From: Dehalococcoidia bacterium | GTDB lineage: Bacteria > Chloroflexota > Dehalococcoidia > UBA2979 | Direction of reading: 5' to 3' | Assembly: GCA_045562675.1 (NCBI GenBank) | Contig: JBJKVL010000008.1 | Location: 131,775-195,774 of the forward strand | Length of the DNA stretch: 64,000 nt | Shown here: in pieces, positions 9,269 to 57,654 of the stretch | Layout: each line of letters begins with the position of its first letter | How positions within the stretch are numbered: position 1 is the stretch's first letter | Program-made: the position numbers and the translations under genes | The notes under the pieces: model-generated | Databases searched by the model: none | The model's input: only the letters and a program-made list of their open reading frames with translations | What the model was told of the DNA's origin: nothing

Positions 9269-9919
9269 TTAAGTAAGATTTTGCTCACATAAATCTTGAA
9301 TTATACACTCATTACACAATGGATTTTTTGCTTGACAGATCTTTCGACCATGCTCAATTAAACTCAAGTGAAATATGCCATATTTTTCTTTTTCAAAAAT
9401 CTGTTCTAAGTCTTCCTGTATATCTATTGTGTTTACTTTTTTTTTGACAAAACCGATTCTTTTTACAATTCTTTCAACATGTGTATCAACTGGTATAAAT
9501 GGAACGCCATATGCGAATAACATTACACATGATGCTGTTTTCTTTCCCACTCCCGGTAAACTAGTTAACCAATTTAGAGCCTCCTTCCTTTTTAAGGTTG
9601 TTAAAAAATACAGGTTATAGTTTTCAACTTCCTCATTAACAATATTTAATACGGTTTTAATATTTTTTGATTTAATATTTGACATGCCCCCAATAGTTAT
9701 CTGTTTTTTAATTTCTGATAGTTGTGCTTTACGAATATTTTCCCAGTTTCCAAAATGATTCATTAATTTGGCAAATGCCTGACCTGAGTTTCTATCAGCA
9801 GTATTTTGCGAAAGAATTGTTAAAATAAGCTCACTAATACCATCACCGTGTGGTCTAATTTTTTTTAGCTTGTATTGCTTTTTTAACAATTTATAAATGC
9901 CGGATGTATTTTTATTCAT
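9269..9919 (-). CDS. nth: endonuclease III-like HhH-GPD DNA glycosylase
   Basis: HhH motif LPGVGKKTASCVMLF. C-terminal 4Fe-4S loop C-x6-C-x2-C-x5-C (CQAKNPLCNECIIQDLC). The ORF-track N-terminus (to 10027) is a hydrophobic, non-conserved extension, so the likely start is the internal ATG giving MNKNTSG. Confidence 0.8.
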   Translation of the reverse strand: MNKNTSGIYKLLKKQYKLKKIRPHGDGISELILTILSQNTADRNSGQAFAKLMNHFGNWENIRKAQLSEIKKQITIGGMSNIKSKNIKTVLNIVNEEVENYNLYFLTTLKRKEALNWLTSLPGVGKKTASCVMLFAYGVPFIPVDTHVERIVKRIGFVKKKVNTIDIQEDLEQIFEKEKYGIFHLSLIEHGRKICQAKNPLCNECIIQDLCEQNLT

Positions 9920-10013
9920 AGCGTTCTTTATATATAAGCAATCTGTATGTTTTATAATTAATAATATAAATATATAATATTGCAAGCTGTAAGTTGCAAG
10001 GATCTTTACAATT

Positions 10014-11051
10014 ATGAACGAAGGCAAGAAAATTAAACTTACTACATTGGCAAGCTGTGCTGGTTGAGCAGGTAAGTTAAGTCATGAGACGCTTAAACAA
10101 GTTTTGTTTAATTCAAAAGATAATAATAACGAATTACTAGTGGATAATAGCACTTTTGATGATGCTGCTGTAATAAAAATTACTGATGAGCTTGCATTAG
10201 TCCAAACAGTTGATTTTTTCCCACCAGTTGTAGATGATCCATATACCTACGGGCAAATTGCTGCATCTAATGCTCTTTCAGATGTCTATTGTATGGGCGC
10301 GAAACCATTATCCGCATTGAATATTTTAGCTATTCCTGAAGATTTAGAAAATCATTTTATTGCTGAAATTCTTGCTGGAGGCAATGCTATTGTTCAAGAA
10401 GCAGGAGCAAATATTGTAGGTGGCCATTCGATTATTGATAAGGAGCCAAAATATGGCTTAAGCGTAACTGGCATTGTGCATCCTGATAAATTAGTTACAT
10501 CTAGCAATGCAAAAATAGGCGATCAAATTATTCTTACAAAACAAATTGGGACTGGTATAGGCTTAACCGGCTTGCAGCAAGGCCAAGTTAAGCAACAATT
10601 AGAAAATGAAATGATTAGTTCAATGATTAGATTAAATTCAACGGCTTCAGATATTGCAATCAAACATAATGTACATGCAATAACTGATGTCACTGGGTTC
10701 GGTTTAGCAGGTCATTTATTCAATGTTGCCAATGCTAGCAAGGTATCTATTTCTGTTGAGCTTGCTGATGTACCACTTTTTGATGGGATTACTGACTTGA
10801 TAAAAAATGATATTTCGACTAGTGGATCAAAACGAAATGAGGAAAGCTTTTCTAAATATATTAATAATCTTGAATCCATTACAGACATTCATAAAGCCGC
10901 AATTTTTGATCCGCAGACTTCTGGCGGTCTATTATTATTCATTGATTCTAAATCAGCAAATGCCCTGGTACAAGAATTATCTGATAACGGCGAACAGGCT
11001 TCAATTATTGGAAATGTTATTAAAAAAGAAAAGAGCATCATTTATTTGTGA
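10014..11051 (+). CDS. selD: selenide, water dikinase (selenophosphate synthetase), selenocysteine-containing; in-frame TGA (Sec) at 10065-10067
   Basis: The ORF track begins at TTG 10104. The same frame reads upstream as ATG(10014) MNEGKKIKLTTLASCAG-TGA-AGKLSHETLKQVL, joining FNSKDNN...DDAAVIK...VDFFPPVVDDPYTYGQIAASNALSDVYCMGAKP. This matches E. coli SelD [25 protein letters not shown] position for position, with TGA at Cys17 and Lys at K20. Total 345 codons. Confidence 0.88.
10077..10096 (+). promoter_or_regulatory. candidate bacterial SECIS-like hairpin downstream of the selD UGA
   Basis: TTAA(10077-80)/TTAA(10093-96) outer stem and GTC(10081-83)/GAC(10088-90) inner stem. There is a 2-nt bulge and an AUGA apical loop about 17 nt after the UGA. 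The stem is AT-rich and weak, folded by eye only. Confidence 0.4.
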
Positions 11052-11070
11052 TGCTCTTTTCTTTAATTTC
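11028..11070. terminator. bidirectional rho-independent terminator between convergent selD and groEL
   Basis: Perfect 13-bp inverted repeat GAAAAGAGCATCA (11028-11040) / TGATGCTCTTTTC (11049-11061) with an 8-nt loop. T-rich tract follows on the plus strand, and an A6 tract precedes it (a T-run on the minus strand). Confidence 0.75.
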
Positions 11071-12899: not shown

Positions 12900-13244
12900 T
12901 TAAAGTTTTCTAATTTTATTTAGTGGCCAATATCTTAGTACTGCTTTTCCTATAATTAACTCTTTTTTTATATATCCAAACTTTCGGCTATCATAACTAT
13001 CAGCCTTATTATTACCAAGAACATAAAATTCTTTTTCAGTTGTTGAATTGATTGAATCTATTCTTTTGATTAATAACTCTTTATTTATTGGATCTTCAAG
13101 TAGAATTATTTCATTTAATTGAAGATGATCAGTATTGATATTTACATTAATAAGAATCCAATCACCATGATTGATAAGAGGCATCATTGAATGACCACTA
13201 ATTTTTACATTCATAAACTTGTTCAATTTATTCAATATTTTCAA
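12900..13244 (-). CDS. sodX: S26-family signal-peptidase-like NiSOD maturation protease
   Basis: 114 aa. Catalytic-Ser context GHSMMPLI, and it lies immediately downstream of sodN. Confidence 0.75.
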   Translation of the reverse strand: MKILNKLNKFMNVKISGHSMMPLINHGDWILINVNINTDHLQLNEIILLEDPINKELLIKRIDSINSTTEKEFYVLGNNKADSYDSRKFGYIKKELIIGKAVLRYWPLNKIRKL

Positions 13245-13275
13245 TAACGCCTCTTACTAACTATCAAGAGCAGCT

Positions 13276-13707
13276 TTATTTTTTTGATTCCCAAAAAATA
13301 TTTGCAAAATCAGCTACTTGTTCTCTAAGTTTTTTAGCATCATCAATGTTTGTGCCAACACGACAAGCTGAAGCAGTTTTAAGAATGTTCCAAGTTTTGT
13401 CATGTAAGTCAGGATATTGTTCCAAATGTGGCGGCTTAAAGTAATCACCCCATATGATCCTTATTTCATGCTTAACAATTTCAGCATGTTTTTCTTTCAC
13501 ATCAACATATCTTGCAAAAGAATTCATTGCTTCTTTTGAGTTAATTTCGCCAAGGTCAGCAATTAAAGCCATCATCTTTTCTACTGTCTCAGCAGCTACT
13601 TCAGCTGCCTTTGGATCGTAAATTCCACAAGGAATGTCACAGTGAGCAAATACAATAGTCTTTGGCTGCATTTTTACAATGATTTTATTAATCAAATTAT
13701 ATTTCAT
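13276..13707 (-). CDS. sodN: nickel-containing superoxide dismutase precursor
   Basis: Nickel-hook sequence HCDIPCGIYDP follows a short propeptide (...TIVFA|HCD). The start may instead be the internal ATG (MQPKTIVFA). Confidence 0.9.
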   Translation of the reverse strand: MKYNLINKIIVKMQPKTIVFAHCDIPCGIYDPKAAEVAAETVEKMMALIADLGEINSKEAMNSFARYVDVKEKHAEIVKHEIRIIWGDYFKPPHLEQYPDLHDKTWNILKTASACRVGTNIDDAKKLREQVADFANIFWESKK

Positions 13708-56604: not shown

Positions 56605-57654
56605 ATGAATAAAAAACATTTTACTGTACTTGAAACAAATGCTTCTCAGGAAATAGAGATTGAATTACGCAATGATCAATTGTGGATTGATGCAAATAAA
56701 TTATCAAATAATTTAGATTGGACCTTAAAGCCAGAAGGGCTTTGTAAAGGCGAAATTTGTGTGCCTGTAAGAGAGCCAAATTTATTATCAGAGGAGAATC
56801 AAATTAACATGACACAATTTGCAAAAGAACTTAATCGTCCAATTGTAATTGAATTAGACAAGGATGTTGTTTTTTTAGGAGAATCAGCGACTGATCGCTC
56901 CGCTGCATTATATGCACATCAAGCACCAGATTTTGAATTACCAGATCTTGATGGAAATATGCATCGCTTATCAGAACATTTCGGTAAAAAACTTTGCCTC
57001 GTTGTGCATGCATCCTGGTGAGGTTGCAGACAAGATTTGCCAGTTTGGCAAGAAATATATACAGAATTATCAAAAAACAATTTTACAGTTTTTTCTGTAA
57101 TGGAAGATAAAAATATTGATGATGCTAAGCCATGGATAGAAGCTGCAAATGCAGATTTTCCATGTACTGTTGATACCAAACATATTGTTTCTGATTTATA
57201 TAATATGTTTAATGTCCCATCAATAGTGTGGATCAATGAGTCAGGTAAAATTGTTCGTCCTAATGATGTTGTGGTTATGAATGAGAGTGGTGCAAAATTA
57301 GTAAAAGTTGACCCTGAAGAATACATTGAAAAAATTCGTAATTGGGTACTTCATGATCATCCTGCTGTTTCGTCTGAGGAAGAATTTTTTAAATTAAAAA
57401 ATGAACGTTCTGCTACAGATGAAGAACAGTTAGCCCGAGCAGAATTTGCAATTGGTGAATGGCTATATATTAATGGAGAAAAGGATTTAGCAGCCAAGCA
57501 TTTTGAACAAGCAACTCAATTATCTCCTGCTGATATAATGATTCAACGAGGCACTATGTCAATGCGAGGCATGGACCCAATGAAGGATTATGGACCTATT
57601 GCTGGTGAAATTATTCAGAAAGGGCATAAGCTCTATACGCCAATTCGTGATTAA
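56605..57654 (+). CDS. thioredoxin-fold thiol:disulfide oxidoreductase (TlpA/ResA/redoxin-like) selenoprotein; in-frame TGA (Sec) at 57019-57021
   Basis: ORFs 56605-57021 and 57037-57654 are in the same frame, separated only by TGA plus 5 sense codons. The joined sequence reads ...APDFELPDLDGNMHRLSEHFGKKLCLVVHASW-U-GCRQDLPVWQEIYTELSKNNFTVFSV...VPSIVWINESGKIV. That is the TlpA/ResA pattern with TGA at the first redox Cys. 349 codons. Confidence 0.82.
57036..57052 (+). promoter_or_regulatory. candidate bacterial SECIS-like hairpin downstream of the redoxin UGA
   Basis: TTTGCCA (57036-42) pairs with TGGCAAG (57046-52). The stem includes 3 G:C pairs and one G:U pair. Apical loop is GUU, about 21 nt after the UGA. 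Folded by eye. Confidence 0.5.

Follow-up and report, generated by a model that had tools for sequence, protein, structure and literature searches.

The selD locus and its reading frame

The selD gene of the 64-kb window (the whole stretch of DNA that was analysed) lies on the plus strand, and its reading frame is crossed by a single in-frame TGA. The features of the locus are listed below.

9951..9978, plus strand: promoter-like site TTTATA-16-TATAAT, 10 of 12 positions matched, upstream of ATG 10014
10014..11051, plus strand: full selD coding sequence (CDS), 345 codons including the predicted Sec18, stop codon TGA 11049-11051, frame unbroken save for one TGA
10014..10016, plus strand: true start ATG; a homologous ATG starts the genes of four relatives
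10056..10058, plus strand: Cys15 codon TGT, forming a CxxU motif with Sec18, as read off the sequence
10065..10067, plus strand: predicted Sec codon UGA (codon 18), equivalent to Cys17 of E. coli SelD in the alignment to 3u0o
10074..10076, plus strand: Lys21 codon AAG, equivalent to E. coli Lys20 and invariant in alignment A1
10104..10106, plus strand: TTG miscalled as a start, in fact Leu31, within the 3' arm of hairpin H2 (described below)
11025..11064, no strand assigned: terminator-like 17-bp hairpin, -23.8 kcal/mol

Translation from ATG 10014 gave MNEGKKIKLTTLASCAG*AGKLSHETLKQVLFNSK..., in which TGA 10065-10067 is the sole in-frame interruption before the stop codon at 11049-11051. The mechanical ORF list starts selD at TTG 10104 and reports a protein of 315 aa. 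The identical sequence of the selD locus is present in four independent public assemblies, and the same truncated 315-aa product is called in them. The initial annotation had proposed that the ORF track, by starting at this TTG, loses the N-terminal catalytic loop, and that the frame continues upstream to ATG 10014 across that one TGA; both points were borne out, with all three codons at the positions it gave. The relatives that start at the homologous ATG (L001, L002, L004 and L013) share the N-terminus MN(E/Q/A)GKKI(K/R)L. For annotation, selD should be called at 10014-11051, with Sec at codon 18.

The promoter-like site is one of 7 found in the region, against 5.8 expected, and the consensus scan is not significant. 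The terminator-like hairpin lies between the convergent genes selD and groEL and holds the selD stop codon; the consensus terminator scan did not list it. The window also carries argB, argD, argG, argH and argJ.

We compared the 345-codon protein, with Cys put in for the TGA, with the SelD family. It scored 373.9 bits against NCBIfam TIGR00476 (cut-off 125), residues 8-313 covering profile positions 1-309 of 311, and 325.9 bits against NF002098 (cut-off 299). The Pfam domains AIRS (PF00586, 99.4 bits) and AIRS_C (PF02769, 75 bits) were both detected. Residues 6-336 were matched to E. coli SelD (PDB 3u0o) with E = 3e-58, and at the N-terminus query residues 6-31 fell on chain residues 5-30 without gaps. 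Against this structure, the gapless alignment claimed in the initial annotation, with the TGA on Cys17 and the next Lys on Lys20, holds far beyond chance. G17, position 18 and K21 are invariant in alignment A1. By family membership the gene is SelD (selenide, water dikinase), its predicted activity being the ATP-dependent production of selenophosphate from selenide.

The window protein differs from E. coli SelD (3u0o) in having Sec for Cys17, Gly for Cys19 and an extra Cys at -3. Among 60 distinct Sec-type relatives, 32 have Cys at -3. Published Sec-SelDs include a CxxU subtype, which makes up about 5.6% of the single-domain Sec-SelDs in GOS (PMC2398784).

Codon 18 and the reading of UGA

Both TGA and Cys codons were found at codon 18 among homologues: across 90 homologous loci, 60 carry TGA, 19 TGC and 11 TGT (Cys in 30 altogether). 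The flanking peptide is conserved in all 90. TGA is present at this codon in eight of nine genome relatives, and TGA-type selD homologues span GC contents from 0.29 to 0.73. Synonymous, third-position changes predominate in the 17 codons upstream of the UGA (8 synonymous and 2 nonsynonymous in L001; 9 and 2 in L004). Judged from these substitutions, the upstream peptide is under purifying selection.

These observations bear on the possibility that the TGA is a true stop, in which case selD would be a pseudogene, or the protein would begin at TTG 10104 and the upstream 17 codons would be an unrelated short ORF. Such an explanation would fit the calls in the four public assemblies, where the 315-aa product is the only one reported by gene callers, and the use of TGA as a normal stop in the genome. 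It does not fit the retention of TGA at the exact codon in two-thirds of the homologues over so wide a range of GC contents, nor the selection on the upstream peptide. Moreover, the SelD profile is covered from position 1 only when residues 8-30 are included, a protein begun at the TTG would be a truncated SelD without the essential Cys/Sec17 and Lys20, and the downstream hairpin covaries only in TGA-type genes. We consider a true stop highly improbable.

Reassignment of UGA to Gly or Trp (genetic code 25 or 4) would instead place one of these residues at codon 18 in the glycine-rich loop; with Gly, the sequence would read ...SCAGGAGK..., which is superficially plausible for such a loop. Stop codon usage argues against this explanation. 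The 63 long ORFs in the window end in TAA (43), TGA (11, including selD) or TAG (9), and groEL, argJ and a 928-aa UPF0182 gene have no internal TGA. By this usage, TGA is an ordinary stop in the host, and the genetic code is the standard one. When the 64 kb were scanned for same-frame ORFs joined by TGA, just two long frames emerged, selD and a gene at 56605-57654, and in both the TGA aligns to a catalytic Cys. Replacement of Cys17 would inactivate SelD, as known from E. coli mutants. We give reassignment almost no weight. The proposal in the initial annotation that selD encodes a selenoprotein with Sec in place of Cys17 is supported by the alternation of TGA and Cys, the alignment to the E. 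coli enzyme and the conserved upstream peptide.

Candidate SECIS hairpins downstream of the UGA

Two hairpins within the coding sequence were considered as candidates for the SECIS element.

10081..10090, plus strand: mini-hairpin H1, GUC-AUGA-GAC, core of the candidate in the initial annotation, -1.9 kcal/mol
10093..10111, plus strand: best-supported candidate SECIS hairpin H2, stem 10093-10100/10104-10111 (8 bp), loop GUU 10101-10103, with covariation

RNAalifold, applied to 28 Sec-type sequences, predicted H2 as the sole helix, with compensatory changes in six of seven pairs. Codon pairs in the stem switch among GCG/CGC, AUG/CAU, AAA/UUU, ACG/CGU, GCC/GGC, GUU/AGC and GCA/UGC, and the G and U of the loop are invariant across the 28 H2-type sequences. 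H2 cells are paired in 88% of cases, versus 34-44% in slid controls and 55% in Cys-type homologues, a percentage that is inflated because the 28 sequences were picked for having the hairpin. This selection does not touch the diversity of pair types, nor the comparison of Sec-type with Cys-type sequences as whole sets. In that comparison, 27 of 60 Sec-type sequences have an H2 of at least 7 contiguous base pairs, and none of 27 Cys-type sequences does (Fisher p = 7e-6; the sequences are related and the counts not independent).

In the bacterial SECIS model (bSECISearch; PMC13188914), the loop has 3-9 nt, the upper stem 4-16 bp and the UGA-to-loop distance 16-37 nt; loop position 1 or 2 is a G, as a rule with G or U after it, and the minimum free energy is -7.5 kcal/mol or lower. 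H2 lies within the CDS 3' of the UGA and agrees with the rules on loop size, stem, G position and spacing, having a 3-nt GU loop, 8 bp and a 33-nt spacer (10068-10100) from the UGA to the loop. It departs from the model in its stability, which at -3.6 kcal/mol (-5.5 kcal/mol for the H1 core and H2 together) is well under the threshold, and in the small extra hairpin between the UGA and H2. H2 is weak because of the low GC content (33.5%); in GC-rich relatives the energies are -19 to -27 kcal/mol. The 61-nt region does reach -7.5 kcal/mol, but by another fold than H2. The spacing of H2, near the upper limit of the model, is also much longer than that of E. coli fdhF.

Folded as a single sequence, the region 10065-10125 (61 nt) was no more stable than its shuffles (z = -0.45). 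Its minimum-energy fold pairs the UGA region with 10103-10110, a pairing that is not conserved, and the pair probabilities give 0.45-0.69 to a 6-bp alternative (10077-10082/10091-10096) versus about 0.1 to H2. Since GC-rich sequences fold in any case, folding energy separated Sec- from Cys-type segments only weakly: the difference had p = 0.005 in the H1 segment and did not reach significance in H2 or in the segment as a whole. Pairing at specific positions told far more. When GU-loop hairpins after a TGA were sought by pattern, 11 matches emerged versus 10.6 in shuffled sequence. By itself the motif thus has no diagnostic value, and meaning attaches just to the two matches that lie inside long open frames. 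Rfam, which is without a suitable bacterial SECIS model, gave nothing over the window at the gathering threshold, and its sole match over 10000-10200 at E <= 10, to an sRNA family, is put down to chance.

The initial annotation had placed the SECIS element at 10077-10096, with an AUGA loop about 17 nt after the UGA; the loop in fact starts 16 nt after it. This stem-loop is possible on paper but of low stability (-0.6 kcal/mol in that form, with an upper stem of 3 bp followed by a 2-nt bulge), and it lies in the region that folds no better than shuffles. It breaks two rules of the bacterial model, because AUGA has no G in positions 1-2 and the upper stem is only 3 bp. In the closest relatives, L001 and L002, the equivalent of the loop is AUAA, again without G, and the lower stem is not conserved. 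That lower stem (10077-10080 with 10093-10096) also takes bases from the better hairpin at 10093-10111, which covaries and which Cys-type homologues lack. AUGA characterises the SECIS elements of eukaryotes rather than those of bacteria.

The gene could still be Sec-type with its functional SECIS at 10077-10096 (or the core 10081-10090) rather than at 10093-10111. The position would match that in E. coli fdhF, in which SelB binds a loop some 20 nt past the UGA, and it is where the only conserved hairpin is found in 32 Sec-type SelD sequences without H2 (82% paired versus 51% in Cys-type). In H2-type relatives the corresponding 4-bp helix shows UA/CG covariation, with 72% of cells at this position paired, and single-sequence pair probabilities favour 10077-10082/10091-10096. 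In the window itself, however, the core forms only three of its four pairs, neither the stem-loop as drawn nor its core has an energy beyond -1.9 kcal/mol, a G is missing from loop positions 1 and 2, and RNAalifold did not predict the helix. We regard this placement as unlikely. In GC-richer relatives the position of the core is taken by a small covarying hairpin, and in other SelD lineages by the only hairpin they have; from this shared position, H1 may be what is left of a degenerated hairpin, or may act as an auxiliary element or a spacer.

Taking the two hairpins together with the evidence on codon 18, we conclude that selD (10014-11051) is very probably a complete Sec-type selenophosphate synthetase, with Sec at the equivalent of Cys17 and H2 as the likeliest SelB-binding hairpin. 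In the proposed mechanism, UGA 10065-10067 would encode the catalytic Sec18 within Cys15-x-x-Sec18, and Lys21 would correspond to E. coli Lys20. SelB carrying Sec-tRNA(Sec) would bind an mRNA hairpin inside the CDS, most likely 10093-10100/10104-10111 with its GUU loop, and, competing with release factor 2, bring Sec to the UGA. The small GUC-AUGA-GAC hairpin at 10081-10090 may shorten or organise the spacer. From the sequence, we infer both the insertion of Sec at codon 18 and the binding of SelB to H2. Expression of SelD should depend on selenium supply, because SelD makes the donor needed for its own synthesis; such dependence is known for Sec-type SelD/SPS2.

Within the SelD family the hairpin occurs at either of two positions. 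Tentatively, and with somewhat less than even confidence, we suggest that the SECIS element has moved within the family, being a distal hairpin in about half of the sampled Sec-type genes, including that of the window, and a proximal one in the others. The distal type would be centred on a conserved Val codon, with the loop GUN 33 nt after the UGA, and the proximal type would have the loop CGGGN 16 nt after the UGA. The stem would be kept by reverse-complementary codon pairs, with residues +10 and +14 from Sec covarying as A/R, M/H, K/F, T/R, A/G and so on, and a remnant of the proximal hairpin may serve in the distal type as a spacer-compacting element. If this is true, SelD would be a natural system for the tolerance of SelB to UGA-to-SECIS distances, and would also show how an RNA signal shapes protein sequence.

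Comparison with known Sec-type SelD and a second Sec-type gene

Known since the 1990s, Sec-type SelD is one of the commonest marine selenoproteins; examples of Sec-type SelD/SPS2 are found in Haemophilus influenzae and Methanococcus, and the type is abundant in marine metagenomes. The window protein resembles these enzymes in the UGA at the E. coli Cys17 position within the N-terminal glycine-rich loop, followed by the conserved Lys, in its AIRS fold, in its single-domain length of about 345 aa, and in the predicted dependence of its own synthesis on the Sec machinery. It differs in coming from a low-GC (33.5%) uncultured lineage, and in having the CxxU loop variant (Cys15) without a second Cys (the equivalent of E. 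coli Cys19). Its nearest genome relatives are labelled as Chloroflexi/Dehalococcoidia MAGs, at 60-62% identity and with the same gene order. The finding of a Sec-type SelD is correct but ordinary, because this is a well-known enzyme variant that ORF finders routinely cut short, and current understanding is unchanged by its presence here. Of the SelD sequences counted in the GOS survey, 357 were Sec-type and 558 Cys-type (PMC2398784). Only one prokaryotic selenoprotein family is more widespread than SelD (PMC13188914), and a Sec-type selD has been reported in Actinomarina (2026 preprint). The SelD of Actinomarina starts MRLT, and arginine biosynthesis, for which the window carries genes, is missing in Actinomarina; on these two grounds it was rejected as the source of the window.

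The other long frame found by the scan for TGA-joined frames lies 47 kb from selD in the window.

56605..57654, plus strand: second Sec-type gene, Prx-like (UGC-containing) family, TGA 57019-57021
57036-57042/57046-57052, plus strand: hairpin after TGA 57019, loop GUU 57043-57045, centroid energy -6.3 kcal/mol

This gene is split into two ORFs in the ORF calls. Pfam AhpC-TSA (PF00578) matched residues 105-217 with 57.4 bits, spanning the TGA. All 10 full-length aligned homologues have Cys at the TGA position, as part of WCGCR with its redox motif CGC. In the closest homologues the called gene begins just past the TGA. L097 retains the TGA. The Prx-like (UGC-containing) family is listed in Table 2 of the GOS survey (PMC2398784), and the window gene resembles it in its AhpC-TSA domain and in U-G-C where homologues have C-G-C. 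The protein is extended at its N-terminus by about 100 aa, which include a conserved CxGxxC stretch, and its C-terminal region is TPR-like. The hairpin apex A-GUU-U is common to H2 of selD and the hairpin of this gene.

The second Sec-type gene lends indirect support to the view that the host would decode UGA as Sec. With at least two predicted selenoproteins in 64 kb, this low-GC uncultured lineage is marked as a selenium user, one in which selenophosphate synthesis would itself be selenium-dependent. A tblastn search of the 64-kb window with E. coli SelA and SelB gave no match, absence being uninformative at this size, and ARAGORN found no tRNA, tRNA-Sec included, in the same 64 kb. In the flanks of the closest relatives, the only match to E. 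coli SelA and SelB by tblastn was selB in L004, where it adjoins a TGA-type selD. A tRNA-Sec gene adjoins the TGA-type selD in three further loci (L050, L071 and L088), and selA, selB and selC are presumably present elsewhere in the genome of the window.

Reading frame of selD across the TGA codon

The frame that opens at ATG 10014 reads MNEGKKIKLTTLASCAG-TGA-AGKLSHETLKQVLFNSK... and contains no further stop before TGA 11049-11051, as the initial annotation had described it, with a lone in-frame TGA and an ORF called from TTG 10104. The listed ORF from this TTG encodes 315 aa, and the same 315-aa product is given by the stored gene calls of four independent public assemblies that carry an identical locus. 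At least four public metagenome assemblies (homologous loci L093-L096; ERZ7462831, ERR12177233, ERZ23796823, and ERR9649086) contain the selD-groEL region without any sequence difference.

The 345-residue product, with Cys put in for the TGA, was scored against protein profiles. NCBIfam TIGR00476 (SelD equivalog) gave 373.9 bits against a cut-off of 125, residues 8-313 matching profile positions 1-309 of 311; NF002098 gave 325.9 bits (cut-off 299), and both Pfam AIRS domains were found. The best match among solved structures was E. coli SelD (3u0o, E = 3e-58). Its N-terminal alignment was gapless and placed codon 18 (TGA) on Cys17, bearing out the initial annotation, and Lys21 on Lys20. Cys15 (TGT 10056-10058) lies three residues before Sec18, forming a CxxU loop (Cys15-x-x-Sec18, 10056-10067), and an equivalent of E. 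coli Cys19 is absent. The CxxU subtype accounts for about 5.6% of single-domain Sec-SelDs in the GOS survey (PMC2398784). Cys at position -3 was present in 32 of 60 sampled Sec-type relatives, far above that figure, probably reflecting bias of the sample towards relatives of the window gene.

We then compared the codon with its counterparts in relatives. Among nine SelD loci from a scan of genome representatives, the homologous codon was TGA in eight and TGC in one (L003). A metagenome scan yielded 80 further loci; over all 90, the codon was TGA in 60, TGC in 19, and TGT in 11. The peptide (K/R)LT......G[U/C]..K was kept on both sides of the codon in all 90 loci, at GC contents from 0.29 to 0.73. 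In the 17 codons 5' of the TGA, differences from relatives were mostly synonymous, third-position changes (synonymous/nonsynonymous, 4/1 for L013, 8/2 for L001, and 9/2 for L004), indicating that the upstream peptide is translated and under selection. Both a pseudogene and a true start at TTG 10104 are thereby excluded. The window, with 33.5% GC, is coding-dense under the standard code. The stops of its 63 long ORFs are TAA (43), TGA (11), and TAG (9), selD itself ending in TGA; because TGA is thus a regular stop, reassignment of UGA was ruled out.

Since Sec-type SelD has long been established, the finding is correct but ordinary; it is useful for fixing the annotation. The Cys/Sec polymorphism of SelD was reportedly described by Guimaraes et al. 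in 1996, as credited in a preprint. In the GOS survey, Sec-type SelD sequences numbered 357 and Cys-type ones 558, and SelD ranked with the most abundant selenoproteins of marine samples (PMC2398784); a 2026 review places it second among prokaryotic selenoprotein families in breadth of distribution (PMC13188914).

Hairpins downstream of the selD UGA

The initial annotation had proposed a SECIS-like stem-loop at 10077-10096, in which 10077-10080 pairs with 10093-10096 and an AUGA loop is closed by GUC (10081-10083) and GAC (10088-10090). Folding did not favor this structure: its energy as drawn was -0.6 kcal/mol, compared with -2.6 for an alternative pairing of 6 bp that leaves a loop of 8 nt and -1.9 for the 3-bp core alone (H1, 10081-10090), and the 61-nt region folded no better than shuffled sequences (z = -0.45). 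The published model of bacterial SECIS elements (PMC13188914) calls for 3-9 nt in the loop, 4-16 bp in the stem, 16-37 nt of spacing, and an MFE of -7.5 kcal/mol or lower; one of the first two loop positions should be G, in most cases with G or U after it. With its AUGA loop (AUAA in L001 and L002), the proposed hairpin breaks the G rule, and no more than 3 bp form its upper stem. A different, covarying hairpin, the distal H2 (10093-10111), conforms to every rule of the model except the energy threshold, hard to reach at 33% GC.

H2 was identified by codon alignment of relatives, in which the region is free of gaps. Its center is a conserved Val codon that follows the UGA at a distance of 12 codons. 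The window sequence is UUAAACAA-GUU-UUGUUUAA, with 10093-10100 paired to 10104-10111 around loop 10101-10103 (-3.6 kcal/mol); relatives have forms such as CUGGCGCAG-GUC-CUGCGCCAG, CUGAUGCAG-GUC-CUGCAUCAG, and CUUGCCCAG-GUU-CUGGGCAAG. Reverse-complementary codon pairs keep the stem (GCG/CGC, AUG/CAU, AAA/UUU, ACG/CGU, GCC/GGC, GUU/AGC, and GCA/UGC), and these switches alter the encoded amino acids. At least seven contiguous pairs in the exact H2 geometry were present in 27 of 60 distinct Sec-type sequences, compared with 0 of 27 Cys-type sequences (Fisher p = 7e-6). For 28 H2-type sequences, RNAalifold predicted the H2 helix alone, with compensatory changes in six of seven pairs. Pairing reached 88% of cells in these sequences, versus 34-44% with partners slid and 55% for the same structure on 26 Cys-type sequences; because the 28 were picked for having the hairpin, the percentage paired is inflated, though neither the range of pair types nor the Sec/Cys contrast is affected.

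The 32 Sec-type sequences without H2 (among L015-L089), which were not chosen for any structure, carry a proximal hairpin with a 5-nt loop CGGGN at offsets 13-29 from the U of UGA. Its form is (U)(G/A)GGUC-CGGGN-GACC(U)(G/A), with the loop 16 nt after the UGA, and 82% of its positions are paired, the corresponding values being 25-55% with partners slid and 51% for Cys-type sequences. The distal hairpin sits on Q-V-L codons, with 33 nt between UGA and loop, and its carriers retain a short proximal version. In GC-richer H2-type relatives, this version is a hairpin of 4-6 bp at the H1 position (e.g., GGUC-CUGA-GACC and CAGGGC-CAGAA-GCCCUG), with UA/CG covariation and 72% pairing across H2-type relatives. 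Because Sec-type sequences lacking H2 have the proximal hairpin and the others have H2, two SECIS placements seem to exist among Sec-type SelD genes, each gene having one or the other. Of all the results, only this comparative evidence for the position of the SECIS, and for alternative placements within the family, is mildly new. The window's proximal element is down to 3 bp and would represent a decayed form that might still assist folding of the 25-nt spacer; the H1 core and H2 together give -5.5 kcal/mol. We regard H2 as the probable SelB-binding element of the window and the proximal hairpin as an unlikely one, the remaining probability falling to a requirement for both.

A second TGA-containing gene and probable Sec decoding

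A scan for pairs of ORFs in one frame with a single TGA between them returned one other credible case in the window:

56605-57654, + strand: predicted Prx-like (UGC-containing) selenoprotein gene, ATG 56605, TGA 57019-57021, stop 57652-57654

The ORF list splits this gene into 56605..57021 and 57037..57654. Pfam AhpC-TSA matched residues 105-217 of the product (57.4 bits), across TGA codon 139. A protein search recovered full-length homologues (about 345 aa) at 35-41% identity, and others at 54-93% identity that are called from just after the TGA only (about 205 aa), a pattern typical of Sec forms that gene callers have cut in two. On a 1.6-Mb contig, one of these split homologues likewise carries TGA at that position. 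Cys occupies it in 10 of 10 aligned full-length homologues (motif ASW-C-GCR), corresponding to W-U-G-C-R here. By these sequence features, the gene is assigned to the 'Prx-like (UGC-containing)' family listed in the GOS survey (PMC2398784). A 7-bp hairpin, UUUGCCA-GUU-UGGCAAG (57036-57052), follows the TGA at 57019; the distance from UGA to loop is 21 nt, and the centroid energy is -6.3 kcal/mol. This hairpin shares the A-GUU-U apex with selD H2, as would be expected if a single SelB reads both genes.

Two independent genes with TGA for a catalytic Cys within 64 kb provide strong indirect evidence for a Sec-decoding trait. tblastn with E. coli SelA and SelB found no match in the 64-kb window, which is too small to decide the matter; neither a tRNA nor an Rfam family at gathering threshold was detected in it. 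Among loci with TGA-type selD, selB lies directly upstream of the gene in L004 (3346-5268), and tRNA-Sec (anticodon TCA) lies within a few kb in L050 (6564-6661), L071 (5031-5127), and L088 (395-491).

Gene neighborhood of selD

Two features flank the selD frame:

9269-9919, - strand: nth (HhH-GPD, endonuclease III-like), 216 aa by public gene call, upstream of and divergent from selD
11025-11041/11048-11064: 17-bp perfect hairpin, -23.8 kcal/mol, with T-rich and A-rich flanks, including the selD stop codon

The listed nth ORF (252 aa, TTG start 10027; 9269-10027) would overlap the selD start, but it is over-extended and there is no real overlap. The divergent gap spans 94 bp before ATG 10014 and contains the best promoter-like match of the region (9951-9978, 10 of 12 positions), in a scan that was overall not above chance. 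An arginine-biosynthesis block lies beyond nth. Convergent genes on the downstream side are groEL, one resembling a signal peptidase gene, and one for a nickel superoxide dismutase. The hairpin at 11025-11064 separates selD from groEL and is probably a bidirectional terminator; a consensus terminator scan did not report it.

The nickel superoxide dismutase gene (Sod_Ni, 143 aa) stands beside a small S24/S26-type peptidase gene, probably encoding the Sod_Ni maturation protease. This pair (12900-13707, - strand) is kept in L001 and L002, which are Chloroflexi/Dehalococcoidia MAGs by their submitters' label. Gene order is as in the window in L001, L002, and L013; GroEL identity to the window is 92-95% in L001 and L002, and SelD identity is 60-62% in these two and 86% in L013.
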